40,000 bases of DNA, from contig NZ_FOHQ01000003.1 in assembly GCF_900111645.1 (NCBI RefSeq), forward strand, positions 73,803 to 113,802, written 5' to 3'. The stretch is from Methanococcoides vulcani (GTDB taxonomy: Archaea; Halobacteriota; Methanosarcinia; Methanosarcinales; Methanosarcinaceae). The notes beneath the pieces were generated by a model. The model made no database searches, was not told where the DNA came from, and saw only the letters and a program-made list of their open reading frames with translations. Made by a program: the position numbers and the translations under genes. Shown here one piece after another: positions 4,423-28,934 of the stretch; position 1 is the stretch's first letter, and each line of letters opens with the position of its first letter.

Positions 4423-5207
4423 ATACCTACCACCAATAATGCAGTGCCTTCTGTCAATTAGTAGAGTTGACCGGATGGCTGCATTCAATTTATTAAGTTT
4501 TTTCAATTTCGTTGTTTTAAATTCACTTTAGATAATGTAAGTCAACTTGTTTTCAGCTTCAAAAAAAATTAACACATGTTTTATTTCCTTAGTATAGCCA
4601 GACGTTAATACCTCAAATTCAAGGTCGAGCATTTAGCTTCTATACATTCTGTAGCAGGAAATTTGGTCTGGTCAATTCCTTTATTGTATTAGTGACTCGA
4701 TTTTCTAAAGATGATTTTATGTATGCAATTATACTAACAAATAAAGTGTTATAAACTTTTATTTTATCATTATATAATTACAATTGAATGTTTGAGACCG
4801 ATTTATGTCTTGTATATTCTCATATGTAGAACAAATTATAGTATATAAATTTGCTGAATATGCAATTAATATTATCTTAAATACTAAGAATATATTTGCT
4901 ATTATCTGTCTTGATGCTTTTTTCTAAAGCCTACAATTATTTTGGAAAAACCAGTTTAAACTATTATTTTGAGAAAAACATACTATTTAATAAACACCAA
5001 TTTTATTTCGTATATTTTAATATATAAAAAACAGTATACAACACGCACAGTATGTATATGTAAATTGACCTTTTCGAACGAAAGTTCACATCCAAAAAAC
5101 AGTGCCTCTGCAAGCATTGTACTACAATATTCTTAAATAAAATAACTCAATTCTATCATCGTTCCTGATCAGTAGAAATAGATGATAAGGATCTTCGGAG
5201 CAATATT

Positions 5208-6434: not shown

Positions 6435-6490
6435 AGTTTGTTGTATTGTACAAAAGACTAATATCTAACTACTAACCATTCACAACTCTA

Positions 6491-9368: not shown

Positions 9369-9871
9369 TCTCACCTTCTGATGCCCTGGAATTGCTTGAG
9401 AAAGCAGGCTGTGCAGCGAACGTTATCCGTCATTGTCAGGTCGTTTCAAAAAAGGCAGTGGAAATTGCTGTTGCGTACAGGGGATCAGGTAAGGATATCG
9501 ATCTTGATATCGTGGAAGTGGGTGCCCTTCTTCATGATATTGGAAGATGTCGCACTCATGGAATAAGACACGCTCTGGAAGGGGTATCGATCGCAGAAGA
9601 TCTTGGTCTGGATCTCCGTCTTATACGTATTATAAGGAACCATATCGGTGCGGGTATAACCTGTCAGGAAGCTTCACTTCTGGGTCTTCCTGAGGATGAT
9701 TATCTTCCTGTGAGCATTGAGGAAAAGATAGTGGCTCATGCTGATAATCTTGTAATGGGAGAAGAAAGTGTGACCATTTCAAGGTGTATCCAGCGCATGA
9801 AGGACAGGGGAATGAGTGAAGAGGCAATTTCAAGGGTTCAGGATCTTGCGAATGAGGTTGGAATTTATTGA
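9365..9871 (+). CDS. HD/HDIG-domain metal-dependent phosphohydrolase
   Basis: LLHDIGR motif and downstream HIGAGI...AHADNL. Its ATG overlaps the tfe stop codon (ATGA), which suggests co-transcription. Confidence 0.8.
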   Translation: MISPSDALELLEKAGCAANVIRHCQVVSKKAVEIAVAYRGSGKDIDLDIVEVGALLHDIGRCRTHGIRHALEGVSIAEDLGLDLRLIRIIRNHIGAGITCQEASLLGLPEDDYLPVSIEEKIVAHADNLVMGEESVTISRCIQRMKDRGMSEEAISRVQDLANEVGIY

Positions 9872-10005
9872 CCTCTATGTTGTTATTTCAAAAATGACTA
9901 TGGATAAATTTATATATTAAAATCACTAAAGGGATGTTGTATTGCGGGAAGCAAAACACATTTTTACCTATTGATTTTCTCGTTTTTTACTATGAGGTAT
10001 AATTA

Positions 10006-10638
10006 ATGGATAATGATAAGCATTTAAAAGGCACAACTACTGTAGGTATAGTGTGCTCTGATGGAGTAGTCCTTGCTACTGAACAGAGAGCAACCATGGG
10101 GAATTTTATCGCCAGCAAGACTGCAAAGAAGATCTACCAGATCGATGACCTTGTGGGAATGACCACAGCAGGCTCTGTAGGCGATGCACAGCAGATCGTA
10201 CGTGTCATTAGTGTAGAATCCAAGCTTTTCAAGATGCGCAGGCAGGAGTCAGTTACCATTAAAGGTATTGCGACACTTCTCTCTAATTTGTTGAGCGGAC
10301 AGAGATATTATCCACTTATGGTCCAGTTGCTTATTGGCGGATTTGACAAGAACGGACCCGCAGTCTATTCACTGGATGCACTTGGAGGCAAGATCGAAGA
10401 GACAAAAGCAGTGTCAACAGGTTCAGGTTCTCCAATGGCATATGGTGTTCTTGAAGACCGCTATAAGGATGACATGACCGTAGAAGAAGGAGTTGACCTT
10501 GCAATACGTGCTCTTCACAATGCAATGAAGAGAGATTCCGCTTCCGGAGAAGGCATTGACGTCGTTGTGATCACAAAGGACAAGTATGAAAGACTTGATC
10601 AGGAAGAGGTTAAGGAAAAACGTAAAGCTTTATATTGA
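10006..10638 (+). CDS. psmB: Proteasome subunit beta
   Basis: Propeptide followed by [27 protein letters not shown], with the active-site Thr after G|TTT; 210 aa. Confidence 0.95.
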
Positions 10639-10741
10639 TTTTATGAAGATCAGATCCGTTCTTACGGTTTTGATCGAATTTTAATATATTTTTTTTAAAT
10701 TTTAACATTTTTTGACTTTTTTGAAATAGGAAGGCTATTTA

Positions 10742-12652
10742 ATGGCAATAGAAGATGTACTATCTGACCTAAAAAAGAAAATAGAAGAAAAGGTCCCTGA
10801 TGGAACGACCATCACCAGTGTTGAGTTCGAGGGGCCACAGCTTGTTGTTTATACTGAAAATCCTAAAAATTTTGCAGACAATGGTCATATCGTGAGGAAC
10901 CTTGCAAAAACTCTTCGAACAAGGATAGTCGTTCGTCCGGACCCTAAGGTCTTAGTTCCTCCAGAGGATGCTATCGAAAAGATAAAAGATACCGTTCCAA
11001 AAGATTCCATTCTAACTAATTTTCACTTTGATCCTGATGTGGGAGAAGTGGTCATAGAAGCGGAGAAGCCCGGACTTGTGATAGGTAAGCATGGAGAGAC
11101 GCTCCGTGAGATCACAAAGAAGATCGGCTGGACACCAAAGGTTGTCCGCACGCCGCCTATCAAATCCCGAACTGTTAACAACATCAGGGAATTTATGCGA
11201 ACCAATCACAAGGACCGTAAAGAGATCCTTAAGACCGTTGGGCGCAATATTCACAGGGAATGCACATCAAAGGATAAGTGGGTAAGGGTCACATCATTGG
11301 GAGGTTGTAAAGAGGTAGGAAGAAGTTGCTTCCTTTTATCAACCCCTGAGTCAAAGGTCATGATTGATTGTGGTGTGAACGTCGGTTCAGACGATAACAT
11401 GACCCCTTATCTCTATTTGCCTGAGGTACAGCCACTTAACCAGATCGATGCTGTCGTACTGACACATGCTCACCTTGATCATCAGGGACTTGTTCCTCTC
11501 CTTTACAAATATGGCTATGAAGGTCCTATTTACTGCACATCACCTACAAGGGACATGATGGTGCTCTTACAGCTGGATTATATCGATGTGGCTGCAAAGG
11601 ATGGTAAAAGGATACCTTATGAATCTTCAAATGTGCGTGACGGACTTAAGCACACCATTGCACTTGGTTTTGAAGAGGTTACCGACATTGCACCTGATAT
11701 CAAGCTCACATTCCATAATGCCGGCCATATCATTGGTTCAGCAATATCACATTTCCATATTGGTGATGGTCTTCACAATGTTGTTATCACCGGTGACTAC
11801 AAGTACGGTCCTACAAGGCTCTTTGACCCGGCTGTCAACAAGTTCCCGCGTGTTGAGACCGTCATAACCGAATCTACCTATGGTGCATCCTCGGCAATAC
11901 AGCCATCCCTTAAAGAAGCTGAGAAGAACCTTCAGCAGATCGTCAAAAGGACCATTGCCAACAATGGTATTGTACTGATCCCTGCGTTTGCTGTTGGAAG
12001 AAGTCAGGAAGTCATGATAGTTCTTGAAGATGCTATCAGGAAAGGTATAATTGACGACATTCCTGTCTATCTTGATGGTATGATATGGGAAGCTACAGCC
12101 ATTCATGCGACCTATCCGGAATACCTGAACAATAACCTCAGGAAACTCATCTTCCAGAAGGGGCAGAACCCGTTCCTTGCAGAATGCTTCAAGCCGGTAG
12201 ATTCCCATGATCTGCGAAAGAAGATCATTAATGATCCACACCCATGTGTGATCCTCGCAACCTCTGGTATGATGAATGCAGGCCCCGTTATGGAATATTT
12301 CAAGGCATTTGCACCTGATCCTAACAACACACTTGTGTTCGTCGGTTATCAGGCAGATGGTACACTTGGAAGACGTATCCAGAAAGGCTGGAAGGAGATC
12401 CCGCTCTCATCCAAGAACGGAGCAGAGGTCGTCCAGATGAATATGGATGTGCAGGTAGTCGATGGTTTCTCAGGACACTCCGACAGAAAACAGCTGATGG
12501 ATTTCATTAAGAAGATGAAGCCACAGCCAGAGCGTGTTTTCACTGAGCACGGTGATGAACGTTCCTGTATCGATCTTGCAAGTTCATTGCACAAGAAATA
12601 TCGCCTCGAAACGAGAGCACTTACAAACCTTGAGACTGTAAGGCTTGTTTGA
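10742..12652 (+). CDS. aCPSF1-type beta-CASP ribonuclease (KH domains + metallo-beta-lactamase + beta-CASP; FttA-like)
   Basis: 636 aa. KH-like motif [18 protein letters not shown] motif [10 protein letters not shown], and a C-terminal HSDRKQL / EHGDE motif typical of CPSF73/aCPSF1. Confidence 0.93.
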
Positions 12653-12673
12653 AGCGGATGATATCAAAAAGAT

Positions 12674-13351
12674 TTACCTGAGCGGTTCCAGATCTGCCAG
12701 AAATTTCAGCAATTGGCTGTGATCCTGGAATATCTGGTCTGCTCTTTTAAGTTTTTCAGTATCCACATAGGTTGAAACTGCCACACAGTGAATTCCGGCA
12801 TTCTTTGCAGAATCTACGCCAAGTGGTGCGTTCTCAATAACAAGGCAGTTCTCTTTTTCGACTTCAAGTATTTTCATAGCTTTCAGGTAAGGTTCAGGGT
12901 GCGGTTTCCCATTGGTGACATCAGCACCTGAGATTGTCACCTCGAAGATGTCCGGATAGAACTCATTGATCATACTGTCCACGATCGGGCGATCGGAACC
13001 GGAAACCACGGCAAGATGGAAGTGGCTTTTAAGGGTCTTCAGTAGATCATACATGCCGTCAAAAGGAGCAATTTTCTTATTTTTTAAGAACAGTTCACGT
13101 TTTCGAACCCGAAGCTTTTCGATAATTTCCGGGTCTGCTTCAAGGCCAGCTTTTTTGAATATGAGCTTGATGACGCCTACGTGGTTAGAACCTTCAATAT
13201 CATAGATATCCTGCCTGACAATATCAATACCAACTTCAGAGAATGTGCGTACCCAGGCATCAGCATGACATGGCATAGAATCCATAAGGACTCCATCAGC
13301 ATCAAATATCAGTGAATTGAACATGCATTTAAATTCCGGCTGATATGACAT
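12674..13351 (-). CDS. HAD-superfamily hydrolase (beta-phosphoglucomutase-like subfamily IA)
   Basis: FDADGVLMDS (the DxDG nucleophile motif), VVSGS, and GKPHPEPY...ENAPLGVDSAKNAG. The real start may be the internal MFNSLIFDADG. Confidence 0.8.
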   Translation of the reverse strand: MSYQPEFKCMFNSLIFDADGVLMDSMPCHADAWVRTFSEVGIDIVRQDIYDIEGSNHVGVIKLIFKKAGLEADPEIIEKLRVRKRELFLKNKKIAPFDGMYDLLKTLKSHFHLAVVSGSDRPIVDSMINEFYPDIFEVTISGADVTNGKPHPEPYLKAMKILEVEKENCLVIENAPLGVDSAKNAGIHCVAVSTYVDTEKLKRADQIFQDHSQLLKFLADLEPLR

Positions 13352-13449
13352 AAAGATTACCTGTTCGGTCTTCCTTTTAATGGTTTATATAACGGTTTTC
13401 GAAAGGATTAATAACTATACGAGCCCATTTTATTAATGAGGTGAAATGT

Positions 13450-13575
13450 ATGTCAAAGTATCACAAACGCGAGTCAGAACGTAAGGGTGAAAAGAAGGTC
13501 GAAATTCTGGAAGACAAATTAATACACGAAAACCTCGAGGATCTCAAAGGAGAAGGCGGTGAAATACTAGATTGA
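13450..13575 (+). CDS. Possible 41-aa highly charged mini-protein, translationally coupled to the SAMP-like gene
   Basis: My own translation is MSKYHKRESERKGEKKVEILEDKLIHENLEDLKGEGGEILD. GAGGTGA lies a few nt upstream of the ATG at 13450. Its TGA (13573-13575) overlaps the TTG start (13572) of the next ORF. It is below the ORF-track length cutoff and has no recognisable family. Confidence 0.35.
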   Translation: MSKYHKRESERKGEKKVEILEDKLIHENLEDLKGEGGEILD

Positions 13576-13784
13576 GTCCACAAGTAGAAGTAAAGATCTT
13601 CCCTGAAAGTCCGGAAGGACAGATCATAGATGTTCCCGATGGAGCAACCTATGAAGATCTGTTGAAAATTCTGGACATAAATCAGGAGCTAGTAATATTA
13701 TTAAATAACGGTCAGGCTGTTCCCATTGATGGAACAGTCGATGCCGGAACAATAACTATTCTTAGAGCGATATCAGGTGGCTGA
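13572..13784 (+). CDS. Ubiquitin-like beta-grasp protein of the MoaD/ThiS/SAMP family (C-terminal Gly-Gly)
   Basis: 70 aa ending ...ITILRAISGG-stop. The size and C-terminal diglycine are typical of ThiS/MoaD/SAMP. Confidence 0.75.
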   Translation: MSPQVEVKIFPESPEGQIIDVPDGATYEDLLKILDINQELVILLNNGQAVPIDGTVDAGTITILRAISGG

Positions 13785-13975
13785 TATAATCGTATAATAT
13801 GATACAGCACAGTAATATGATTCAGTATAATATTTACTGCGATGTAATTTTACGATACAGTTACACGATATATTGATACAATATATTAATGCGACATATG
13901 GTCACATAAATCAAAAAAGCAAAGCTAGTTTGATGCTTCTTTCTTACAACCAACGAGCACGCCTGACAAAAAAAA

Positions 13976-13998
13976 CCCGGATGGATCTAGATCCGGGG
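13976..13998. terminator. Putative bidirectional terminator hairpin between convergent genes
   Basis: The sequence AAAAAAAA-CCCGGAT-GGATCTAG-ATCCGGG-GGTTCTTTATTT has 7-bp perfect arms (CCCGGAT/ATCCGGG). An A-run lies on one side and a T-rich run on the other. It sits 5 nt from the regulator's stop codon. Confidence 0.45.
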
Positions 13999-14003
13999 GT
14001 TCT

Positions 14004-14378
14004 TTATTTGGCAAGAGTTTTCAGTTTGTTGATTATGCGTATTCTTGCTTCGTTTTCCTCACGGATCTTTTGTTCATAATGTTTAATGATCTTTCCAAAA
14101 GGCGTTGTTAAAGAATAGATCTTTGTAGGCCTTCCTTTTCCGGTCACTTTTTCATTATGGACTGATATCCAGGAGTTCTCTCTCATTTCTCTCATTGCAA
14201 CACTGACTTCGGGTTGACGAAGACCTGTGCTCATTTCTATTTCCTGTGAAGAGGCTTCCTTCACATTTGATAGATATGCAATGGTCGTAGCAAGATTCCG
14301 TGTCATTCCAAGACTTTTGAGAGACTCAACGATCTCCTCGTTGGATTCACCCAATTGCTTTCCACCAAAGCTTATCAT
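14004..14378 (-). CDS. Winged-helix (ArsR/MarR-like) transcriptional regulator
   Basis: ASSQEIEMSTGLRQPEVSVAMREMRENSWISVHNEKVTGKGRPTKIYSL gives an HTH + wing pattern. I prefer the start at MISFGG (14378) because GGTGGTGA lies 3-4 nt upstream. The track ORF extends to 14435. Confidence 0.7.
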   Translation of the reverse strand: MISFGGKQLGESNEEIVESLKSLGMTRNLATTIAYLSNVKEASSQEIEMSTGLRQPEVSVAMREMRENSWISVHNEKVTGKGRPTKIYSLTTPFGKIIKHYEQKIREENEARIRIINKLKTLAK

Positions 14379-14628
14379 GTTCACCACCGTACCACTATTG
14401 TAGAGTAAATACTGTAGAGTATTTTCTACCCCCAATTAAAGATGTGTCATTATTATATTTAAACTGTGTGTGACGAATTAGGCAATTCTACATGTATTAT
14501 ATAAAATTGAATATGCTTCTCCTATATGTATAATCTCTAAAGATCGATCTTCAAAATCATCCCGGAATTCGTATAGAAGAACTACTATGGGGGAGTTAGT
14601 ATGGAAATCTTAGAGTAAGATTAATGAG

Positions 14629-15810
14629 TCAGTAATTGGTCAACAATACCAACTTTTCCCCAACGATCTCCAGAATACTTTCCCTCATTTTCTCAAAGCT
14701 GTCAAATCTTGCACGATCATTGTCATCGAAAAGTTTGTTGCGTATCAGTTTTCCGATAATATCATCCCATCCTGGTTCAAGTTGCAGGACCTGAGAGCCC
14801 GGATAAAAGTGTGCAGTGTGCGAAAAACCATCGGGATCACCGTCGGTAATACCAATAACAGGAACATGCAACCTGTAGAGAATATCACCGGCTATTGCGG
14901 TCGTATCATCGCCCACAGTGATCGCACATTTACATCCGTCAGCAAGTTCTATGGATCGCTCTGCTATGTGATCTATCAAAGTCGCCATAAAGGAAGAGTT
15001 GCTTTCATGGATCAGGGTATGGCATCTTTTAGGACCGGTACCAACTTCAGGCAAACTTCGCCTTATTGCACCTGTCTTAACCCAGGCTGTCCTGATATCA
15101 AGCGGTTCCATGGATTCGTACATGTGCAGTTTCTCAAGTCCATGCTCTTTTATTATACCGCCCTCTAATCCGGTTACAAAACCGTTTTCCACCACAATTG
15201 AAACATCATCAGACGTGGCTTTACCAATGACGAATCCTTCTATCATGATAAGCTCGCCAGCATGAACTCCCCGTATCTTTCTCATGGTCTTTGTGCCCAC
15301 AGTCGAGATCTGCACGTCTCCGTGATCCTGACCTTCAGTAACTGGCATTCCAAGCAGATCTCCCATTTTTGTTGCGAGATCGTAACCTCCATCATTCCAG
15401 TAGATCACACTGCCATCTTCACAGCCCGGGCTTTCTATCTGTATGATGGGCTTGAGGTTCCTGTCCGAAAGCCTGGACATGACAATACTGCCAAATTCAA
15501 GCCCGTTACCTGCTGTTTTCCCATGGTTGAGCAGGCAAACGGCATCACAGGAGCCAAGAAGAGAATCGATAGCATTACTGGGTTTAAGGCTTTCCTTGAT
15601 GTCTATACAGTCTTCCATGAGCGCATCCATGACTGCGATCTTTCCCATTGTGCCACCAAGCTTCGCAGTGACCTCTCCCATACCTGAGAGCATCTCCAGT
15701 ATATGTTTTGCATGACCGGAATCGATCACTTCAGGCCCGTGGATAACAACCCCTATCTTCATAGTCAATACTTTGTAATGGACCTTATTTTTGGTTTTCG
15801 ATGCTATCAT
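14629..15810 (-). CDS. Conserved archaeal two-domain protein of unknown function (possibly DUF2117-like; the C-terminal part has a Toprim-like motif pattern)
   Basis: 393-aa ORF. MKIGVVIHGPEVIDSGHAKHILE begins at residue 17, so 15762 is an alternative start. The C-terminal ITVGDDTTAIAGDIL...VPVIGITDGDPDG resembles the (E)G..D.....TD.D..G Toprim/RNase M5 layout. The family assignment is from memory only. Confidence 0.6.
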   Translation of the reverse strand: MIASKTKNKVHYKVLTMKIGVVIHGPEVIDSGHAKHILEMLSGMGEVTAKLGGTMGKIAVMDALMEDCIDIKESLKPSNAIDSLLGSCDAVCLLNHGKTAGNGLEFGSIVMSRLSDRNLKPIIQIESPGCEDGSVIYWNDGGYDLATKMGDLLGMPVTEGQDHGDVQISTVGTKTMRKIRGVHAGELIMIEGFVIGKATSDDVSIVVENGFVTGLEGGIIKEHGLEKLHMYESMEPLDIRTAWVKTGAIRRSLPEVGTGPKRCHTLIHESNSSFMATLIDHIAERSIELADGCKCAITVGDDTTAIAGDILYRLHVPVIGITDGDPDGFSHTAHFYPGSQVLQLEPGWDDIIGKLIRNKLFDDNDRARFDSFEKMRESILEIVGEKLVLLTNY

Positions 15811-19854: not shown

Positions 19855-20763
19855 ATGAAAGAAGTAGAACTTACAGACCCCTATACTATACCTTACAGGG
19901 GCATATATGCAGTCTGCGATGAAGAGAATAAGAACGCAGAGATCATTGAGCATACCAATTGCTATAGTGGGGCTGCATGGTCACGTTTTCATTATGCGAG
20001 ATCTCCCCTGATACAGCAGGCACGTGCTGTGGGGAACATGACCCGCTATCTCGTGAACACTGGAGCGTGTGACCTTTCACTCAAGGCATCTGTGGCTGCT
20101 GCAGGGATCGAATCTGTAGTGGTCGAAGACGATGAGGTGTCCATAACCTATGCCGGTCTTGGCGGCGGCGGTGTGGGAGCTACGAAATGCAGGGCACTTG
20201 CACAGGGAGTGCTACGCTACAATGTGAGTGAATCAGGTGGTGGAAGAGCTGCCAAAGGCACTATTGTAGTTCCAAGGCGTGAGCGTGTCCTTATCGGTAT
20301 CGATGATACTGATACAAAGGAAGAGGGTGCCACATGGTCCATGACACACAACATAGCAATGGCGCTTAACTGCAATGAATCCGTTTATCTTTCACATTCA
20401 CTTGTACAGCTCTTCCCGGTATCGGCAAAGACGCAGAACTGTGTTTCCACAGTGCTTGAGTTCGGCTGTGTCAGCAAGGAAGCAAAGCAGGAGCTTCTGG
20501 AAGACCTGAAGGCTGCACTTCTCAAATACAGTGTGTCCGATGAGACCGGAATGGTCGTATTATCCTCATTTGAAGCCTCCAGGATGGAGGAATATAGCAC
20601 CCTGTGCCGCAGTGGTGAGCTTACTAAAGACTTTGCCATGCAGTATGCACGGGACAACGGTGTCGATGTCTGGCTTGATGGCAATGGAGTCATTGGTGCT
20701 CTTGCATCACTTGCGTGGTTCGCACGACCTGACGAATCAGTAGACCTGGAAGCAAAGTTATGA
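19855..20763 (+). CDS. Protein with a TiaS-N-terminal-like (DUF1743-type) domain; possibly 'methanogenesis marker protein 11'
   Basis: VLIGIDDTDTKEEGATWSMTHN resembles the IGIDDTDS...CTT motif at the N-terminus of archaeal TiaS. About 300 aa. The marker-11 name is a recollection and is not verified. Confidence 0.55.
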   Translation: MKEVELTDPYTIPYRGIYAVCDEENKNAEIIEHTNCYSGAAWSRFHYARSPLIQQARAVGNMTRYLVNTGACDLSLKASVAAAGIESVVVEDDEVSITYAGLGGGGVGATKCRALAQGVLRYNVSESGGGRAAKGTIVVPRRERVLIGIDDTDTKEEGATWSMTHNIAMALNCNESVYLSHSLVQLFPVSAKTQNCVSTVLEFGCVSKEAKQELLEDLKAALLKYSVSDETGMVVLSSFEASRMEEYSTLCRSGELTKDFAMQYARDNGVDVWLDGNGVIGALASLAWFARPDESVDLEAKL

Positions 20764-22316
20764 ACAGAACTGACAGGGAGGTCGGAACTTCAGAAATTAC
20801 CGGGCTGGAAGCTCTTTATTTTGCATTGATTGACAGCAAGGTGGAGATGGTCACGGGAGTTGCCGGATTTCCTGTTACTGCCGTAATGGAATATTTCGAG
20901 AAGAATCTCGGTTCTGACATTCCCACACTGTGGATGACGAATGAGAAGGTCGCCCTCGAAGCAGCACTTGGTGCTTCGGTTTCAGGCAAGAGGTCCTTGG
21001 TCCTCACAAAGCATGTGGGTATGAACGTCCTTTCCGACCCCCTTGTTACAGCTGTTACTCACACCATTGGTGCCGGGGTAGTGATTGTTGCCGGAGATGA
21101 TCCGGGGGTCAGAGCATCCCAGAACGAGCAGGATTCACGATGGTACGGTGAGGTGGCAGAGGTTGCTGTATTCGACCCCTCCGGCCCGGATGCTGCATAC
21201 GGGTCACTTGTCAGGGCATTCGAACTTTCTGAAAGAACAAAAACGCCGGTCATAGTCAGGATAACGGATCGTCTGGAAAAAGCCACAGGTCCTGTCACAA
21301 GATCCGATGACATTAAAGCAGAGACCGAAGCTACATTTGACAGGTCTATCTGGAAGCTGACAATGCGTGGTAAGCATCAGCATTTTCACATAAATGTACA
21401 GCCATTGCTTGTGGATGAAGCAGAGAGCAGTTCACTGAACCGATCTGTTAGATCAGGCAGATCAAGCAAAACAGATAAAGTAGGAATAATTTCTTCCGGC
21501 TATCCTTCTTTACTTGTAGATGAGCTATTATCCGAAAGGCAGCTTGAGGTTTCACATCTTTCACTTAATGTTGTATCTCCTCTTCCTGTCAGGAAATTGA
21601 GAGATTTCATATCCGATCACGAAAAAGTTCTTGTTATTGAGGAAAGTGAAGCCTTTATCGAATCCCACATCAGTATCTGTGAGAATGTGCTGGGAAAGAT
21701 GAGCGGGCATCTCCCATATGGTCGCATTGAAAAAGAACAGATCGGTTTTGCGATCGAGAACATCGATAAAGATAAGGTAACTGAATATACTTTTATTGAG
21801 ACCATTGAGGAAAGGGGTTCACGTTCTTTGTGCGAGGACTGTCTTTTCCTGCCGGTCTATAGAATGCTTCATGATCTGGATATTTTCATAGCAGGTGATA
21901 TGGGCTGCTCCATACGCAGTGCCCCTGCGCCCCTTGAAGCCGTTGATGTCGGATTTGCACTTGGTGCTGCTATTTCCACAGCTATAGGTTTCGATAAGAA
22001 GTCCGTTGCTGTTATAGGCGACTTCGGACTTTCACATTCCGGAATTATAGGTCTGATAAATGCTGTCGAGAACGAACGTGATGTACTGGTACTGGTACTG
22101 GACAACAGGACAGCAGCAATGACAGGTGGACAATCCACGCCTGATCTTACAGATGCTGTAAAAGCACTTTGTGATGATGTCACTGTCTTTGAGTTCAATG
22201 ATCCAGAAATTGCTGGTAGCAGGATAAAGGAACTTGAAAGTCTTGTAAGGAATAAGCTCGCAGTAAAGGGTGTTTCGGTAATCTATGTAAGGGCTGAATG
22301 TGTTTTGTATAAGTGA
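20760..22316 (+). CDS. Indolepyruvate:ferredoxin oxidoreductase alpha-subunit-like TPP enzyme, lacking the ferredoxin domain
   Basis: NEKVALEAALGASVSGKRSLVLTKHVGMNVLSDPL...VAGDDPGVRASQNEQDSRWY and GDMGC...IGDFGLSHSGIIGLINAV...LDNRTAAMTGGQ match IorA motifs. I see no CxxCxxCxxxCP motif in the 518 aa. The ATG overlaps the upstream stop codon (ATGA). Confidence 0.75.
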   Translation: MNRTDREVGTSEITGLEALYFALIDSKVEMVTGVAGFPVTAVMEYFEKNLGSDIPTLWMTNEKVALEAALGASVSGKRSLVLTKHVGMNVLSDPLVTAVTHTIGAGVVIVAGDDPGVRASQNEQDSRWYGEVAEVAVFDPSGPDAAYGSLVRAFELSERTKTPVIVRITDRLEKATGPVTRSDDIKAETEATFDRSIWKLTMRGKHQHFHINVQPLLVDEAESSSLNRSVRSGRSSKTDKVGIISSGYPSLLVDELLSERQLEVSHLSLNVVSPLPVRKLRDFISDHEKVLVIEESEAFIESHISICENVLGKMSGHLPYGRIEKEQIGFAIENIDKDKVTEYTFIETIEERGSRSLCEDCLFLPVYRMLHDLDIFIAGDMGCSIRSAPAPLEAVDVGFALGAAISTAIGFDKKSVAVIGDFGLSHSGIIGLINAVENERDVLVLVLDNRTAAMTGGQSTPDLTDAVKALCDDVTVFEFNDPEIAGSRIKELESLVRNKLAVKGVSVIYVRAECVLYK

Positions 22317-22340: not shown

Positions 22341-22432
22341 CGGCTTTTTGTGGGTTCGAATCTTACCCCCCGCACAATACTTCGGGGATATAGGGAAAGT
22401 ACGAAAAGGCAACTCCTAAAACTTTCTAACTA
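22341..22432 (+). repeat. Copy A (shorter, partly deleted) of a hairpin-bearing intergenic repeat
   Basis: The perfect 27-bp core CCCCGCACAATACTTCGGGGATATAGG at 22368-22394 is identical to 25602-25628. The flanks are similar: GGCTTTTTGTGG / AATCT..TACC on the left and (G/T)AA(A)GTA(C)GAAAA..AACTCC.AAACTTT on the right. The copy starts 25 nt after the IorA-like stop codon. Confidence 0.8.
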
Positions 22433-22688
22433 TACCCTTCTAGTAAGGCCGTCTACTTACGGCTTATTTTAAGTAAGTCTTGAGAAGGAAAATTGTCTTT
22501 TTTTAATTTATTAAAACGCAATCAGTAAGCACATTTTATGCAAAATATTTATATGCTAAAAATGCATATTACATATGTACATTTCTATCAAATTATTCAG
22601 CTAATTATCTGTAAGATTCAAAAAAAATAGTATTGAAATCGATGCATTAGTTTAGCTGATTATTTGGACTAATGGAAGGTAATCTACA

Positions 22689-23885
22689 ATGAAAATGCTA
22701 CTTCTAAACGGCCATGGAATCAACATGCGGGTTGATGCTGCTAAACTCCATATCAGGGATGGAAGATTTTCAACCACTGAAGATCCTCAAGAGTATGTGT
22801 TCTCTCCCAAGAGGATGGATGTTGATAGTATCATTGTTTATGGTAGAAGTGGATCTCTGAGCCTTGAGGCTATCAGATGGTTGGTCAAACACAATGTACA
22901 GATTACAATTCTCAATTGGGATGGAAAACTGTTGACAACAATGCTTCCTTCTGAAAGTACCAATGTTAAGACAAAGTTTGCCCAGTACCACGCTTATGAA
23001 GATCAGGATACAAGAGTAAAGCTTGCAAGGAAGTTCATTGAAGCCAAGTTCTCTAAATCTGAAGCTGTTCTTGATTATCTGCAGCAAAGGTATCCTGAGA
23101 TTGAGTACGATTTTACTGATGACAAAGCCAGACTTGAGAAAGCCAAATCCATAAGGGAAATACTTGGTGTTGAAGGTGGAGTTGCCTGGAAATACTGGAA
23201 TGAGTATGCCAAAGCTGTTCCTGAACAGTATGATTTCAAGGCAAGAACTGATAATTACAGAAGGGCAAACGGAGCAGGCGACAAAGTCAATGTGATGCTT
23301 AACTATGGGTATGCATTGCTTGAATCTGAGTGCCTGAGAGTCATTAATTCAGTTGGTCTTGATGCTCATGTTGGTTTCCTTCATGAGATGAATCAGAGCA
23401 AGTACAGTCTGGCTTATGATTTCCAAGAGCTGTTCAGGTTTATTGTTGATCTCGCTGTAATGAACCTGATTGAAAAGGGAGCTATGGATAACAAGGATTT
23501 TGTCAGGACTGAGAGCTTTTCTTTGAGGTTAAGACCAACTGGAGCAAGGAAGGTTACTGAAGAGTTTAATTCTGTGATGAATAGCAAAGTCGAGTATAGG
23601 AAAAAGAATAGTTCTTGGGGATCTGTCCTGTTGCTCAAAGCAAGGGAACTAAGCCATCATCTTGTTGGAAAGAGAAAAGCTGTTGAGTTCATGAATCCTT
23701 CTTATAAGATTGAAAGACATGATTCTGATTTATTGAGGAAGAAGATCATTGATATGCCTTATACTGAATGGAAGAAGATGGGTTTCTCTAAGGGTACATT
23801 GCATTACATGAAACAGAATGCTAGAAGTGATAAGCCGTTTACACTCAATGCTCATGTTAGGGAAAGGTTGGAAGGATGGGAATAA
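22689..23885 (+). CDS. cas1: Stand-alone Cas1 integrase (casposase-like, with a C-terminal HTH extension)
   Basis: The Cas1 fold signature runs throughout: N-terminal LLLNGHGINMRVDAAKLHI, then GVEGGVAWKYWNEY (catalytic Glu), NVMLNYGYALLESE and GLDAHVGFLHEMNQSKYSLAYDFQELFR (catalytic His and Asp). The C-terminal MPYTEWKKMGFSKGTLHYMKQN looks like an HTH, as in casposases. No cas2, cas4, array or polB lies nearby. Confidence 0.9.
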   Translation: MKMLLLNGHGINMRVDAAKLHIRDGRFSTTEDPQEYVFSPKRMDVDSIIVYGRSGSLSLEAIRWLVKHNVQITILNWDGKLLTTMLPSESTNVKTKFAQYHAYEDQDTRVKLARKFIEAKFSKSEAVLDYLQQRYPEIEYDFTDDKARLEKAKSIREILGVEGGVAWKYWNEYAKAVPEQYDFKARTDNYRRANGAGDKVNVMLNYGYALLESECLRVINSVGLDAHVGFLHEMNQSKYSLAYDFQELFRFIVDLAVMNLIEKGAMDNKDFVRTESFSLRLRPTGARKVTEEFNSVMNSKVEYRKKNSSWGSVLLLKARELSHHLVGKRKAVEFMNPSYKIERHDSDLLRKKIIDMPYTEWKKMGFSKGTLHYMKQNARSDKPFTLNAHVRERLEGWE

Positions 23886-23989
23886 AAAGGATGAGTAGCA
23901 AAATTATTTATAAGTAAAGGATTGTATCAAAAATGAATTAATTAAAAGCAAAAATTTCTAACTTGTCACAAAAAGAGCAAGGTGTAATC

Positions 23990-25537
23990 GTGAAAACAGT
24001 AATGTTCATATTCCTTCTTGTCCTCTTTTTACCTTTATCTAGTGCACAAGGTCTCGATTTTGACTCAGAAAGATCTCCTCTATTAAGGGATAACAATTCC
24101 CCAATAATTCAAGATGTTTATGGATCTTATGTTTTGACTAATAACACAAGTTTTAGTGGTAAAATAAAGGATTTCAAAGATTCCAATGTCGCTTTTAATT
24201 TTACATTTAACTTTACTTCAGGTAGTCAATCGATAAAAATACAAGACAAGATCATTAATCCAGAATCTTCTTTTTTTTTCAGGTTGGATTACGTTGTTTC
24301 ACCTGAAGTTCATATGATTGAAGCTTTTAGTTTTAACTTAGGCCTATGGCCAGAAAGACTAACAAGTCCAACTCTGTCAACTCTATCAACAGGCCCTCTT
24401 GCTGTTTATAATGAGGATAAGGTTTTAATTTTTCCTACACTACCCAATTCAAGTAACTACTTAGTATGGAAAAATAATGGGTCAACAATTATCTCAATAA
24501 TTACTACTCCTAAAAAAGAGCAAGATTCTTTACATCTTGATATTATGTACTTAGATAAGGAGACAGAAACCTATCGCAATGAAGTTACTAATTTAGGTTT
24601 TTTAGATGAAAAAATTGATGTTTTGTTATATGAACCAACTTCTGCTATACGTGACATTTCACTACACTACGAAAATGGCACTTCCCAAGAAATAGACTTT
24701 TCTGATCCAGAAGATGTTGTTAAGTGGAGTTTTGAGAATGTAATTGTCAAAAATGGAAGTGCACAATGGGGATCTCCTTATTTCACCTACAATCAGTTTA
24801 GTAGTACAAATGAAACATTTGAAAGTATTAGTTTCGATGAAGCTTTGAAGTTGAATTCTTCAGAATGGTTGTATGATGGAAAACAATTTTTTAGAATATT
24901 TGAAGGGAATATAGAAGAAGTCACTGTTGATTATTCAATAGATGGAATTTTTCACTATATACTTGTAACTCAAAGCCAAATTGTACCAAAAATTGTTATC
25001 GAATGTAAAGACAAAGAGATTAACCAATTATCTTTAAAATATAACCAATCTGGAACCACAAAAATTGAAACGATAAACGCTAATGATGATAAAATTATTT
25101 TTAATGAACCACTATTGCTTGAAGGTTCTTCTTTTTATTTTCCATTTGACAGCTATCAATCTAAAATTTATGCCATAAATCCACCATCACTTAAAGAAAA
25201 AAAAAGTGAGTTGCCTTTCGTAGATGGTTCCCGCTTTGAAGGCGATGCACATTTTAAGAGAGATAAAATTGAATTTGAAATGACAAGCCGTAAAGATATT
25301 AAATGCCAATATTGGTTAAGCTTATTATTTTTTTCCATATCATTTACTTTGTTACTATTTTGGGAAAATAACACTAACGACAATAGAAAAAAAATACTCG
25401 AAATTATTTCTATTATTTTTGTTTTTATTGGTAATCAAACATTTTTGGTTAGTATCGGCACGATTCTTTTTTTGATCATAGCCGTCTTTATAGTTTTTTT
25501 GAAGCGTAAACCATTTTTCAAAAACTGTTGTGCATAA
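23990..25537 (+). CDS. Orphan secreted, probably N-glycosylated protein with a C-terminal double-TM anchor (unknown function)
   Basis: Signal peptide (M)KTVMFIFLLVLFLPLSSAQG. I prefer the GTG start at 23990, preceded by AAGGTG; the track uses the TTG at 23963. There are many NxS/T sequons. The C-terminal hydrophobic helices are YWLSLLFFSISFTLLLF and ILEIISIIFVFIG...ILFLIIAVFIVFL. The gene is very AT-rich compared with its neighbours. Confidence 0.7.
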   Translation: MKTVMFIFLLVLFLPLSSAQGLDFDSERSPLLRDNNSPIIQDVYGSYVLTNNTSFSGKIKDFKDSNVAFNFTFNFTSGSQSIKIQDKIINPESSFFFRLDYVVSPEVHMIEAFSFNLGLWPERLTSPTLSTLSTGPLAVYNEDKVLIFPTLPNSSNYLVWKNNGSTIISIITTPKKEQDSLHLDIMYLDKETETYRNEVTNLGFLDEKIDVLLYEPTSAIRDISLHYENGTSQEIDFSDPEDVVKWSFENVIVKNGSAQWGSPYFTYNQFSSTNETFESISFDEALKLNSSEWLYDGKQFFRIFEGNIEEVTVDYSIDGIFHYILVTQSQIVPKIVIECKDKEINQLSLKYNQSGTTKIETINANDDKIIFNEPLLLEGSSFYFPFDSYQSKIYAINPPSLKEKKSELPFVDGSRFEGDAHFKRDKIEFEMTSRKDIKCQYWLSLLFFSISFTLLLFWENNTNDNRKKILEIISIIFVFIGNQTFLVSIGTILFLIIAVFIVFLKRKPFFKNCCA

Positions 25538-25547
25538 TATAAAAAAT

Positions 25548-25665
25548 GGGTTTTGTGGACTCTTTACACAAGCCCGTACAAAAAATCTGGGTTACCTATA
25601 TCCCCGCACAATACTTCGGGGATATAGGTAAGTAGAAAAAACCGAACTCCCAAACTTTTTGTATG
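25548..25665 (+). repeat. Copy B (full-length) of the hairpin-bearing repeat
   Basis: A 15-bp perfect stem, TTACCTATATCCCCG (25592-25606) paired with CGGGGATATAGGTAA (25617-25631), encloses the loop CACAATACTT. An upstream mini-hairpin is TTGTG-GACTCTTTA-CACAA. The copy starts 11 nt after the stop of the preceding ORF. Confidence 0.8.
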
Positions 25666-25824
25666 TTAGATTTTTGTGTAAAATGAATATGATCTGTGCT
25701 TAAAATTAGTAACAGTTATTACTGATCCAATTTCTAAAAAAAGTATTAATAGTTTGAAAAACCACTTTTAAATATAGATAAAATTCGGTATGTATCTTTT
25801 TAATTATTTGGTGGGGGTGAGGAA

Positions 25825-27063
25825 ATGAGAATTAAAAAGAATATGATGATTTGTTTTGGAATGGTTTTAGTATTAATGACCATTGGAACAGCAACAGCAG
25901 GCACGATCACAGTGAACAACAGCACAGGACCAGTAGCAGATTATACCTCGATTCAGGATGCTGTAGATGTCGCAACTAATGGGGATACAATCCTTGTTTA
26001 CCCAGGAACGTATGTCGAAAACGTGGATGTAAACAAAGAATTGACCATTATCGCAGAATCCGGACCTGATGTTACCACTGTCCAGTGTGTTCCGGGGATG
26101 GACGATTACGTCTTCCATGCTGGAAATTTAACCGAAAATGTTAATGTGACCATCAACGGCTTTAATGTAACAGGTGGTAGAGGGATAGGTTTTTCAGAAT
26201 CCTTACACAGCGAGCTGAGAAATAACATTATATCGGACGGGGGAATTTTTGCTGGTGGTAGCGACATTACCGTGATCAATAACACCGTAATTTCGAAAGG
26301 AATAATATTATACGATAGTGAAGGTATTTTAGAGAATAATGAAGTGTTTTCTTGCTCTGGTACTGGAATAACTATTGAAGGTCAGGCAGACGGCACCTTG
26401 GTTAACAACACTATATATGAGAATGGTGTAGGAATTAGGATATGGGACTTTGGCAGCGGCGATATTTACAACAACACCATATATAGGAATGAAGTTGGAA
26501 TCAAGATATATGGGAATTCCTACGGAAAGATAGCTAACAACTATTTCAACAACACGATGAATGCTCAGATTGATGTACCTTATCTCGGCATATACATCAC
26601 CTGGAACACCACCAAAACAGCAGGTGCAAATATCATTGGTGGTCCTTTCCTTGGCGGAAACTACTGGGCACATCCGAATGGCACAGGTTTCAGCCAGATT
26701 GGTGAAGATTTAGATGGGGATGGGATCTGCGATTCACCATATATAATTGATGGGAACAACACCGACTACCTGCCATTGTATTTACCAACACCTGTTGATA
26801 AAATGGAAGCTCTCAAAGAATATGTGAATGGTCTGGATGGAGAGGTTGCAGATTCTACCAAACATGTTCTCAATGTAAAACTCGACGGTGTAATCAAAAA
26901 TCTTGACAAAGGAAATAACGATAATGCCATCAAAAAACTTGAGAATTTCATTAAATTTGTTGATATAAAGGAAAGGCAAGGTAAGTTAGGAACTGAGCAA
27001 GCTGAATACCTAATCAATGAAGCAAATTCTATCATTGAGATGATACAGAATTCAGAAGGGTAA
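25825..27063 (+). CDS. Secreted right-handed parallel beta-helix (PbH1/NosD-like) repeat protein with a C-terminal helical domain
   Basis: Signal peptide MMICFGMVLVLMTIGTATA. Contains GTITVNNSTG...SIQDAVDVATNGDTILVYPGTYVENV and repeated NN.I..N..GI units. GDGICDSPYIIDGNNTDYLPL is typical of archaeal NosD-like surface proteins. Confidence 0.8.
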   Translation: MRIKKNMMICFGMVLVLMTIGTATAGTITVNNSTGPVADYTSIQDAVDVATNGDTILVYPGTYVENVDVNKELTIIAESGPDVTTVQCVPGMDDYVFHAGNLTENVNVTINGFNVTGGRGIGFSESLHSELRNNIISDGGIFAGGSDITVINNTVISKGIILYDSEGILENNEVFSCSGTGITIEGQADGTLVNNTIYENGVGIRIWDFGSGDIYNNTIYRNEVGIKIYGNSYGKIANNYFNNTMNAQIDVPYLGIYITWNTTKTAGANIIGGPFLGGNYWAHPNGTGFSQIGEDLDGDGICDSPYIIDGNNTDYLPLYLPTPVDKMEALKEYVNGLDGEVADSTKHVLNVKLDGVIKNLDKGNNDNAIKKLENFIKFVDIKERQGKLGTEQAEYLINEANSIIEMIQNSEG

Positions 27064-27109
27064 TATAACCCTTCTTAATTTTTTGATAAACTGATCTGAT
27101 TAAAAATCA

Positions 27110-27213
27110 TCAACAGCATTCTCCCCAGTTCTCCAACCTCTCCTTTACATGAGCATTGAGAGTAAACGACTTATCGCTCTGGCTTTAAGTTTCATAACCC
27201 TCAATTTGATACT
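27110..27213 (-). pseudogene. 3'-terminal remnant of a second cas1 (casposase-like) gene, in inverted orientation
   Basis: The reverse complement reads ...NSKYQIEGYET*SQSDKSFTLNAHVKERLENWGECC*, against FSKGTLHYMKQNARSDKPFTLNAHVRERLEGWE* in the intact Cas1. About 40 of 46 nt are identical over GATAAG.CGTTTAC.CTCAATGCTCATGT.A.GGA.AGGTTGGA. There is an internal stop and roughly the N-terminal 370 codons are missing. Confidence 0.75.
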
Positions 27214-27325
27214 TAGAATTTAGCAACATTAAAATCAACATCATCCGGTTGATTTTAAGTATGCTAAATAGTTACCTTATTATTTCCCTTGTTTCCTAAC
27301 AAATTAGATCCGAAACTTAGTTCCT

Positions 27326-28222
27326 TTAGCTAATTGGCGGAAAGTCAGAGAGTTGTTCTAAATCTGTAAGGACGATTTGGGGTTTATACTTATATTTTTT
27401 GACTTTCCCGCTAACATAAACATAACCTCGCCCATGCTTGGCATAACGCTTTTCAATAAGTTGGAGCAGGGGGGCTGCTTCTTCACCATCTACGTTTGGT
27501 ATCCACAAATTGAATTTGTGATGCTTTGAACCTGCGTAGATCAGTGCTCCACCACCAGTCCATTTATTTATTCCAGATTGAAGATCGCAAAATACCGTGG
27601 CGAATTCTTCATTTTCAGCTGTTTTTTTGATGGTTTCATAGTCAAGTCTTACAGAAAGAACGCCTGCATCAACACCAATTTCACGATAATCTTCGATGAC
27701 GGATGCTCGAAGCGACCACCAAGGTAACAAGGTAGTGTAGTCACGAGACAGTCCACCGCAATTGGTTTCCGGATTCCATATTTGAAGATTGTTAGCCTGT
27801 GCTTCCGCTTCCGCAATCATAAATTCCTCATGATACAATCTTGACCTGCCATACTTAACAAAGTATGGGCTCCATCCTTCTTTAACAAGTTTTAGATTAT
27901 AATTTTCATCGCCTTTATGGACGTAGCACAACAGGCGGTTATAGTTTCCGCGATGCTTGGCTAAGCAGACATGCTCAGGGTCATCGGTGTCAAATTCGAT
28001 GCTAACCTGAACAAATCCTCCTCCTGGTGAAGTGAAATACTCTTTTGCCATTTCAGTTGCTGCCTTCCCTGCTTTTGTAACAGGTTTTGAACCCCCTGAA
28101 TAGCTTTCCTCGGTATCAACATCGATAAGTCTCAGAGTTTCTTCTTCCCCTTTAATCAGTACCTTAATAGTGTCCCCATCTACTACTTTTGTCACTTGAA
28201 GGTTTTCAATTCGTGTTCCCAT
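27326..28222 (-). CDS. Staphylococcal-nuclease (thermonuclease/SNase) fold protein with an uncharacterised C-terminal domain of about 150 aa
   Basis: VVDGDTIKV...LRLIDVDTEES...HRGNYNRLLCYVH...NLKLVKEGWSPYF...AEAEAQANNLQIW follows the order of the SNase motifs (DGDT, RL.G.D.PE, YGR.L.YV, LV..G.A, A...A...G.W). I prefer the start at MGTRIEN (28222), preceded by GGGGGAG; the track ORF starts at 28240. Confidence 0.75.
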   Translation of the reverse strand: MGTRIENLQVTKVVDGDTIKVLIKGEEETLRLIDVDTEESYSGGSKPVTKAGKAATEMAKEYFTSPGGGFVQVSIEFDTDDPEHVCLAKHRGNYNRLLCYVHKGDENYNLKLVKEGWSPYFVKYGRSRLYHEEFMIAEAEAQANNLQIWNPETNCGGLSRDYTTLLPWWSLRASVIEDYREIGVDAGVLSVRLDYETIKKTAENEEFATVFCDLQSGINKWTGGGALIYAGSKHHKFNLWIPNVDGEEAAPLLQLIEKRYAKHGRGYVYVSGKVKKYKYKPQIVLTDLEQLSDFPPIS

Positions 28223-28772
28223 TTTGTCTCCCCCATTCACTCATTTTAGACAATGTCTTGCGGATAAAAGAAGTTCGCTAATGGATAAATTTGAATGAAG
28301 CATGGCGAAGCCTTTTATCCGCTGTTAAGCGACAATTTTGGCGGCAAAAATAGTTTAACCCCCCACTATTGTCCGCATCATATCTAATTTCAATGATCGG
28401 GATCATGTCTTCCCTATCACACTAGACATATACATATAAAAATTTATAGTATATATCAGTAGTTTATTATAATTTTATGCGATAGATATAGCATTATAAA
28501 CATAGCATAATTTTATACCATTCATATAATTATTTTTTTAATAGATAAAAATAGAAATTTATTAAATAGATTAAATTTGGAGTGTGGTGATTAGCAAGAC
28601 AACATCTTTCCAATTGTTAAAAAGAATGGAGAATTCCGATAAACCTCCCCAACAGAAGCAAAATTTATAAGCAAATGTTATAATTTTATATTAGATCCTT
28701 AAAGAGCTTTGCTTTTAAAGAAGACATTCATTTGATTGTGGAATGGGTTAGAAGGAAGCGAACAATATTGAT

Positions 28773-28934
28773 ATGCAGGAGCTTGAAGGAAATGCGGTTG
28801 AAACCTATCTTGATATCAAGAAGGTTCATGAATGAGTGCTTGTTCTGACTCCTGATGATGTTAGGGAGATGGGAATCGAACACAGGAGTACGTTGAAGAG
28901 GATCAAAGATAAAATAAAAAATGATGTTCGATAA
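28773..28934 (+). pseudogene. Decayed short ORF with an in-frame TGA, encoding an HTH-like segment
   Basis: MQELEGNAVETYLDIKKVHE-TGA(28833)-VLVLTPDDVREMGIEHRSTLKRIKDKIKNDVR-stop. The pattern ..(D/E)(V/W)(R/K)(E/K)MG(I/F)....TL(K/H)(R/Y)(I/M)K resembles the C-terminal HTH of the Cas1 at 22689. The assignment is weak. Confidence 0.3.

Follow-up and report, generated by a model that had tools for sequence, protein, structure and literature searches.

A probable casposase that has outlived its polymerase in a casposon array of Methanococcoides vulcani

The window analysed here, 40,000 nucleotides of the Methanococcoides vulcani genome (contig NZ_FOHQ01000003.1, positions 73,803 to 113,802), contains a cas1 gene at positions 22689-23885 that very probably encodes an intact and likely active family-2 casposase, situated in a recombined casposon derivative that lacks the casposon family-B polymerase (PolB) and belongs to a tandem array at a conserved, site-specific target. 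As published experiments on Methanosarcina mazei show, a casposase of this family joins the 3′-OH ends of its element, formed by terminal inverted repeats (TIR GGGATATAGG...), to a 14-bp CGCA-initiated target preceded by ~30 bp of tRNA-like sequence. The 14-bp target is duplicated on insertion, and repeated use of one target builds tandem arrays. The element that carries the gene here, unit 1, most likely lost its polB, HNH and helix-turn-helix (HTH) genes by homologous recombination, or by deletion together with gene conversion. Judging from its catalytic and DNA-contacting residues, its HTH, and a ratio of nonsynonymous to synonymous substitution rates (dN/dS) of ~0.09, the casposase is probably still a functional integrase, kept by selection, gene conversion or both since before M. 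vulcani and M. methylutens split.

An earlier note on this DNA had presented the gene as a stand-alone Cas1 and offered three explanations for it. The first of them, a non-autonomous casposon or one in decay, has the strongest support, given the TIRs, the target site duplications (TSDs) and a second casposon remnant found here. The description as stand-alone is misleading, because cas1 lies inside casposon termini and TSDs, in tandem with a second decayed casposon, at a hotspot found in four genomes. The note had overlooked the PolB stub, the second cas1 stub, the TIRs with their two TSDs, and the T-loop-like target motif.

Results

The cas1 gene product resembles the casposase of Methanosarcina mazei

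The claim that the window holds an intact 398-residue Cas1 is borne out by an exact open reading frame (ORF) at 22689-23885, with matches over residues ~18-330 to the Pfam model Cas_Cas1 (8.5e-66) and the generic NCBIfam cas1 model TIGR00287 (1.3e-66). The best solved structure for the protein is the M. mazei casposase-DNA complex (6OPM, E 5.6e-190). The two proteins are 67% identical over all 398 residues with no gaps, and therefore the residue numbers of 6OPM apply directly to the window protein. E162 (GVEGG), H232 (GFLHE) and E247 (YDFQE) are all kept, as are R191 and R192, which contact bases in the M. mazei casposase. The earlier note had named the same three motifs correctly, but had taken the Asp of YDFQE as the third catalytic residue, which in the paper on the M. 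mazei casposase structure is the Glu, E247. Its prediction of an extra C-terminal HTH agrees with the alignment, in which the extension of residues ~331-398 matches the HTH region of the M. mazei casposase without gaps (including 342-398). A C-terminal HTH of ~60 residues is the mark of family-2 casposases, and its deletion abolishes integration by the M. mazei enzyme (PMC6977970).

Could the protein instead be the Cas1 of a CRISPR adaptation module, with its array and cas operon outside the window? The generic Cas1 models do match strongly, and public databases annotate the protein as 'CRISPR-associated endonuclease Cas1'. However, all NCBIfam models specific to CRISPR subtypes score far below their cut-offs (e.g. 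I-B, 153.8 vs 304.1), and the best CRISPR Cas1 structure reaches only 8e-36, CRISPR Cas1 structures being without the C-terminal HTH tail, while full-length similarity is to an enzyme that biochemistry has proven to be a casposase. The most similar proteins are full-length ones from Methanococcoides (85-92% identical), followed by proteins from Methanolobus, Methanosarcina and Methanoregula; the closest of all (92%) is encoded 2 kb from a family-B polymerase gene and another (88%) 5.5 kb from one, and close relatives lie beside PolB in elements bounded by TIRs and TSDs. No cas2, cas4 or array occurs within 22 kb upstream or 16 kb downstream of cas1. The CRISPR explanation is effectively refuted, and the protein is a family-2 casposase and not a CRISPR Cas1, which agrees with its earlier description as casposase-like.

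The window lacks CRISPR partners and an intact PolB

The earlier statement that the 40 kb hold no CRISPR array, cas2, cas4 or effector genes stands. TRF and repeat searches found no tandem or CRISPR-like array in the window, an Rfam scan found no family and ARAGORN no tRNA. Among the 29 other ORFs of at least 100 aa, Pfam detected no cas2, cas4, effector or intact PolB domain; their content is ordinary for an archaeal chromosome and includes the proteasome, TFE, FttA, NMD3, DUF2117 and the pst operon. The casposon island itself holds no plausible small ORF for cas2 or cas4, and tblastn found none of the casposon proteins p110 (HNH-like), p213, p294 (HEAT-like) and HNH138 in the window. The earlier claim that no PolB was in reach needs qualification: no intact polB is present in the window, and none lies between the TIRs at 22385 and 25604, but a PolB 3′ stub is found at 28752-28931.

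Beyond the window, no M. vulcani protein is among the best 120 PolB relatives in a protein-database listing, which is not a whole-genome scan. The same 120 relatives include six other Methanococcoides strains, and both M. vulcani Cas1 proteins did turn up by name in a search for Cas1 homologues. M. vulcani thus probably has no intact casposon polymerase and, in the window gene, a single intact casposase. Because no intact casposon PolB is detectable in the genome by this listing, unit 1 would be at best non-autonomous.

Unit 1 is bounded by casposon termini and identical target duplications

The features of unit 1 and its target are the following.

22350-28904 (about), no strand: whole casposon-derived island, 6.5 kb, between the IorA-like gene (20760-22316) and phoU/pst (28958 onward)
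22350-22367, plus strand: T-loop-like, target-proximal motif GTGGGTTCGAATCTTACC, directly upstream of the target
22371-22384, plus strand: TSD copy 1, 14 bp, CGCA-initiated, CGCACAATACTTCG, identical to 25605-25618
22385-22416, plus strand: left TIR, subtype 'B2', GGGATATAGGGAAAGTACGAAAAGGCAACTCC, resembling the published MetMaz-C1 TIR
22500-22688, plus strand: putative promoter/5′ leader of ~190 nt, specific to TIR-adjacent cas1 copies in an alignment of five B2-linked copies
22689-23885, plus strand: intact family-2 casposase gene, ATG start, Cas1 domain and C-terminal HTH, 398 aa
23963-25537, plus strand: ORF524, an orphan cargo gene of 31% GC, with a signal-peptide-like N-terminus and hydrophobic C-terminal segments
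25565-25604, minus strand: right TIR, subtype 'A', read inward GGGATATAGGTAACCCAGATTTTTTGTACGGGCTTGTGTAA, core GTACGGGCTTGTGTAA
25605-25618, plus strand: TSD copy 2, CGCACAATACTTCG, identical to copy 1

Unit 1 (22385-25604) spans 3.2 kb and consists of a TIR, a ~300-nt leader, cas1, ORF524 and a second TIR. With all copies from the window and related loci placed in one orientation, casposon termini read GGGATATAGG(T/G)AA…A-run… and are inverted around the TSD core, with the TIR consensus GGGATATAGGNAA. At the two ends of unit 1, the terminal 13/15 nt are inverted repeats of each other and match the published terminus of MetMaz-C1, whose TIR is 5′-GGGATATAGGTAACTCAAAAAAACGCAACGC. The left TIR has the B2 subtype core …GAAAAGGCAACTCC, and the core of the right TIR matches both TIRs of L003, an M. 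methylutens casposon that carries PolB. The pair of cas1 and ORF524 is bracketed by a direct repeat of 58 nt (22368-22425 and 25602-25659), which has an exact core of 27 nt that includes TIR bases, and the 24-nt TSD junction string occurs exactly twice in the window, compared with 0.00 occurrences expected by chance.

The 58-nt repeat, with its hairpin-like core, was also considered as an att site or as an intergenic repeat resembling miniature inverted-repeat transposable elements, but comparison with L003, where the best inverted repeat is of the same sequence class and its arms lie 9.5 kb apart, shows its core to be a TSD: the loop, which is not palindromic, has one and the same orientation at either end of the L003 element, and the core looks palindromic because two TIRs abut the TSD. 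The 3′ end of cas1 and its inverted copy at 27119-27178 were rejected as TIRs, since most of cas1 would then fall outside the element. ORF524 has no Pfam, NCBIfam or PADLOC match and no relative in the 22 related loci or in a metagenome scan.

Directly before the TSD, in the window and at more than 10 related sites, stand a T-loop-like GGTTCGAATC and an acceptor-like CCCCCGCA. In L003, L005-L009, L013, L017, L020 and L022, a motif of this class stands ahead of the proximal TSD. In M. mazei, the TSD is likewise 14 bp long and CGCA-initiated, and ~30 bp of upstream tRNA-Leu sequence are needed (PMC6977970); a partial tRNA-Leu-like target, 'tLEU2', is also described for M. mazei. By analogy, the motif at 22350-22367 may take the place of the upstream tRNA-Leu sequence. 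The possibility that the motif belongs to a real tRNA was discarded, as ARAGORN found none in the window or in L002-L004, Rfam found none, and there is no 5′ acceptor strand. In two related loci, at L006 1049-1154 and L017 13966-14090, two proximal target sites stand in tandem, 86-105 nt apart, each with a T-loop-like motif, a TSD and a ~50-nt solo TIR. Here the leader-like motif and a solo TIR have been duplicated together, and the target units form a short array that resembles a run of repeats.

A second, decayed casposon follows unit 1

The remainder of the island is made up of these features.

25619-25650, plus strand: TIR, subtype 'B', of a second, older casposon remnant, directly after TSD copy 2 and homologous to junctions in a second M. 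vulcani locus (L002)
25825-27063, plus strand: secreted NosD/beta-helix and FIMAH protein, apparent cargo of the second casposon
27119-27215, minus strand: remains of a second casposase gene, a decayed 3′ stub, …GYET, stop, SQSDKSFTLNAHVKERLENWGE, found as an inverted repeat and by blastn
27326-28240, minus strand: SNase-like nuclease gene (Pfam SNase), in place of the deleted casposon core of the second remnant
28752-28931, plus strand: casposon PolB 3′ stub of ~60 codons, KEANNIDMQELEG…stop…LTPDDVREMGIEHRSTLKRIKDKI, truncated at its end and interrupted by an in-frame stop

The island has a GC fraction of 0.31-0.40, compared with 0.43-0.51 in its flanks. Homology of the host backbone to L022/L023 ends at ~22319, and backbone homology to strain AM1 restarts at 28905. 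The cas1 stub reads …SDKSFTLNAHVKERLENWGE with an upstream stop, matches many cas1 3′ ends in blastn, and forms an inverted repeat with 23826-23885 at 80%. The PolB stub aligns with the C-terminus of the L003 PolB in tblastn (46% identity, 1.7e-12), and is not the similar HTH of Cas1 because its GKEANNID segment is specific to PolB. The two stubs are divergently oriented, as is right for a canonical element that has been flipped. Unit 2 (25619 to ~28931) is a decayed canonical casposon that was flipped, had its core deleted or replaced, and was truncated at its far end against phoU. The SNase-like gene matches the PADLOC candidate defence family C3a212 'SNc+LTD' (1e-14), scores below the cut-off of the thermonuclease-like NCBIfam model, and is absent from all related loci; it may be defence-type cargo or a later insertion.

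Paralogues of the NosD/FIMAH protein adjoin casposon ends in L002 (7781-9208 and 11532-15113) and L022 (13218-13613), one of them a giant of 1,193 aa. In all three loci, counting the window, these genes converge with cas1 3′ ends by casposon termini, and they look like a recurrent cargo family of Methanococcoides casposons. L002 also holds a second PolB-less unit (9481-15337) with mismatched TIR subtypes and diverged TSDs, which contains a truncated cas1 (336 aa, aligning to residues 38-374), an HNH gene and the giant NosD protein; two further cas1 stubs are present in L002 at 6843-6944 and 7602-7685.

Unit 1 appears to be a recombination product

In the canonical Methanococcoides layout, a TIR is followed by ~1-1.6 kb, then by PolB, p110 (HNH-like) and p213, all pointing leftward, then by p294 (HEAT-like) and Cas1, both pointing rightward, then by cargo and the second TIR. 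The core order PolB-p110-p213-p294-Cas1 is kept in six loci. Five complete PolB-bearing elements of 8.6-11.4 kb (L003, L005-L008) have a proximal T-loop-like motif, TSD and TIR and a distal TIR with an identical TSD, and the pair in the window is built alike. In these elements the two TIRs match through ~40 nt, with 17-23 of 30 bases identical at positions 16-45, whereas in unit 1 only the terminal ~14 nt match and the corresponding count is 5 of 30.

The cas1 gene of unit 1 is itself a mosaic. Its upstream 250 nt and first ~100 nt follow other B2-linked copies at 80-96% identity; canonical copies are unrelated upstream of cas1 because p294 occupies that position. Further along, at 23161-23260, the gene is 94-98% identical to the canonical L003 and L005a copies and ~83% identical to B2-linked copies, and past the gene all homology stops at the stop codon. 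In a distance tree, the window protein groups with L003/L005a, and its positional orthologue with the other B2-linked copies. Because of the mismatched TIR subtypes and the mosaic cas1, loss of PolB by recombination or deletion between tandem copies is most likely. From these sequence patterns we infer that unit 1 is a product of recombination, deletion and gene conversion among co-resident, co-oriented casposons and not a purpose-built mini element. Its identical TSDs are no argument for transposition, since every junction in a tandem array carries the same duplicated target. Short cas1-3′ and PolB-3′ stubs are spread over most related loci, and in L003, the M. methylutens casposon closest to the window cas1, the PolB gene (5152-7806, minus strand) has four in-frame TGA stops although cas1, TIRs and TSDs are intact, so that there, too, PolB seems to decay ahead of the casposase.

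Several observations weigh against this account. No parental A-type casposon with ORF524, an orphan, was found in the 22 loci or the metagenome scan. No pair of B2 TIRs was seen in the loci, and a metagenome pattern scan gave 0 hits; the TIR-leader-cas1 arrangement might therefore, instead of resulting from deletion, be how the left end normally looks in a casposon subfamily that has yet to be sampled. The tRNA likeness of the upstream motif was judged by eye, and a sensitive Rfam scan found no partial tRNA there. Finally, pairwise dN/dS values average over possible time spent inside complete casposons and over imports by gene conversion.

The casposase occupies a hotspot shared by four genomes

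Orthologues of the IorA-like gene were traced in three other genomes, and in each of them a T-loop-like motif, a CGCA-type TSD and a TIR come directly after the gene. The TIR is of subtype B2 in M. methylutens; in AM1 it is of a degenerate A2 subtype, with nothing but inverted cas1 fragments after it; and in M. burtonii it is a solo A-type TIR followed by an IS66 element. A search of these relatives for an empty site found none, as all four genomes have at least a solo TIR at the hotspot. The IorA-like gene itself (20760-22316, plus strand), labelled 'indolepyruvate ferredoxin oxidoreductase alpha', scores 305 against a cut-off of 651 for NCBIfam IOR_alpha and has no adjacent iorB; it is kept beside TiaS across Methanococcoides, with its 3′ flank as the casposon hotspot.

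M. methylutens is collinear with the window through the host gene, target, TIR, leader and an intact cas1 of 401 aa, and window positions 22345-23882 align to L022 11644-13183 at 85%. A comparison of dN/dS across orthologues, suggested in the earlier note, gave 0.089 (dS 0.64) for the intact Cas1 pair from M. vulcani and M. methylutens, a value in the purifying range that is no proof of selection after the loss of PolB, because the history of the gene is mixed and gene conversion confounds the estimate. For the flanking housekeeping genes, dS is 0.40-0.65 in four of five and dN/dS 0.04-0.12 in all five, and dN/dS between the window cas1 and PolB-linked copies is 0.07-0.14. All four complete TIR-adjacent cas1 copies are intact.

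In M. methylutens the orthologous cas1 opens an island of at least 20 kb with a second intact cas1 and an intact PolB. This PolB (CP199767, L022/L004) is 901 aa long and belongs to a divergent lineage, ~54% identical to the others. The two intact M. methylutens cas1 copies have private leader variants in common and cluster together in the tree, which suggests intragenomic gene conversion.

The leader at 22500-22688 is near-invariant in five TIR-adjacent copies from four genomes, far above the conservation of synonymous sites, and has no homology to canonical casposons, which have p294 in its place. A search for RNA structure yielded no more than an inverted repeat of 8 bp, TCAGCTAA…TTAGCTGA, in which one pair is compensatory, the variation being too small to assess a structure. 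The segment may act as a regulatory leader or as a site for protein binding. Copies of the TIR-leader-cas1 module are found at different loci and in either orientation.

Another feature of the window

At the window start (1-4527, minus strand), an ORF of at least 1,509 aa that runs off the end contains a CobN/Mg-chelatase domain (6e-173) preceded by CarboxypepD_reg, SdrD-B and Ig-like repeats, which are encoded by two runs of 312-bp tandem repeats (2417-4245) with copies 90-95% identical.

Discussion

Alternative explanations for unit 1

If unit 1 is not a recombined remnant, it could be a self-mobile, minimal casposon without PolB, cut and pasted by its own casposase with the help of host repair or replication. 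The earlier note had raised a new minimal Cas1-driven element as one of its options, and several features fit: a perfect 14-bp TSD sits within the 27-nt exact repeat, at both ends the outermost 13 nt agree with the casposon terminus, and the casposase is intact and keeps its HTH. Artificial mini-casposons made of TSD and TIR move in M. mazei, with excision depending on the casposase (PMC10359463), and the M. mazei casposase reportedly accepts varied end substrates. However, the M. mazei host still had its native PolB-bearing casposon, and the TIR subtypes of unit 1 differ beyond ~14 nt, unlike those of every complete element. Neither the unit nor ORF524 has a second copy in the 22 related loci or the metagenome scan, the right-hand partner of the orthologous cas1 differs in M. 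methylutens, and a tandem array should have identical TSDs at every junction regardless of content. We therefore consider self-mobility improbable.

Domestication, the last of the earlier options, would make the casposase a resident host gene beside the attachment site, for example one that controls or captures incoming casposons or DNA. Such a role would be akin to the first stage that has been proposed on the way from casposons to a CRISPR adaptation module. Positional orthology with M. methylutens, the dN/dS of 0.089 with dS in the range of the flanking housekeeping genes, the conservation of the leader, the intactness of all four complete TIR-adjacent copies and the apparent lack of an intact PolB in M. 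vulcani, as judged from the protein-database listing, all speak for it, and cas1 adjoins a leader-like motif and repeated TSD/TIR units. Yet AM1 and M. burtonii have lost the gene at this site or have it only in fragments, and it is therefore dispensable; it continues to exchange sequence with ordinary casposon copies; its module occurs at other loci in both orientations like a mobile element; the full features of a transposase are kept, including placement next to a TIR; and no partner genes are conserved with it. We consider domestication, too, improbable. A broader version, also unlikely, is that a PolB-less casposase and its leader have been kept beside the attachment site in several Methanococcoides species since before they split, as a resident integrase that is maintained by purifying selection at the level of the host and either serves elements without PolB or has been co-opted. 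An intact, probably active casposase in a recombined, PolB-less casposon derivative is the explanation that we retain.

Implications

The CRISPR adaptation machinery is proposed to descend from casposons, and in the standard scenario a casposon loses its polymerase and becomes fixed beside its target. A resident integrase of the kind just described would, if real, show in a living organism the stage of an immobilised casposon beside its duplicated target that has been postulated for that origin. If retention of the casposase reflects function, M. vulcani offers a tractable natural system, a cultivable methanogen whose enzyme has a close structural homologue, for asking what a casposase does without self-synthesis and whether mobility needs PolB at all; if retention reflects only slow decay and gene conversion, the locus is one more casposon remnant.

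A casposase in a casposon graveyard is mostly known biology; the exception here is its persistence, in two species, beyond the loss of its polymerase partner. The literature already covers casposon families, CGCA targets, tandem arrays at a re-used target, solo TIRs and inactive elements of Methanococcoides. What appears to be new is the clear definition of TIRs and TSDs in casposons of Methanococcoides (those of M. burtonii had been reported to be undetectable) and the repeated occurrence of a TIR-leader-cas1 arrangement whose casposase, under strong constraint, outlasts PolB. Published surveys of complete casposons, tandem arrays and solo TIRs apparently contain no description of an intact casposase surviving without PolB.

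Comparison with known systems

The closest well-characterized relatives are the family 2 casposons, represented by MetMaz-C1 of M. mazei Go1 (6OPM), with which the window shares a 67% identical casposase including the active site, R191/R192 and the HTH, a TIR terminus of the form GGGATATAGG(T/G)AA…A-run…GCAAC, a 14-bp CGCA TSD, and, as judged by eye, a sequence resembling a tRNA 3′ end before the target. As in that family, the target is re-used in tandem and in either orientation, leaving solo TIRs and remnants. Unlike family 2 casposons, unit 1 lacks genes for PolB, HNH and HTH/HEAT proteins, its two TIRs differ in subtype, its cas1 is joined to the left TIR by a conserved 300-nt leader instead of following p294, and there is no intact tRNA.

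MetBur-C1 to C3 of M. burtonii are from the same genus and share the casposase and PolB lineages (78-87% identity); they were described as probably inactive and as having fragmented core genes (Krupovic et al. 2014, 2016). In those elements polB is still present and no TIRs or TSDs were found, in contrast to the window unit, which lacks polB, and to the clear termini both here and in the five complete Methanococcoides casposons. Engineered mini-casposons (NAR 2023, PMC10359463) resemble unit 1 as PolB-less units of 2-3 kb with casposon TIRs and TSDs, inserted in tandem at the original target. They are, however, synthetic, carry no casposase and were moved in trans in a host with a complete casposon, whereas unit 1 is natural, has its own casposase and mismatched TIRs, and resides in a genome without a detectable intact PolB. 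Compared with the CRISPR adaptation module, the window unit has no Cas2 or array, a 14-bp instead of a 25-50 bp duplication, an essential HTH, and scores below the subtype cut-offs; what the two share is the Cas1 fold with its catalytic triad, predicted integration beside a leader-like sequence, and duplication of the target.

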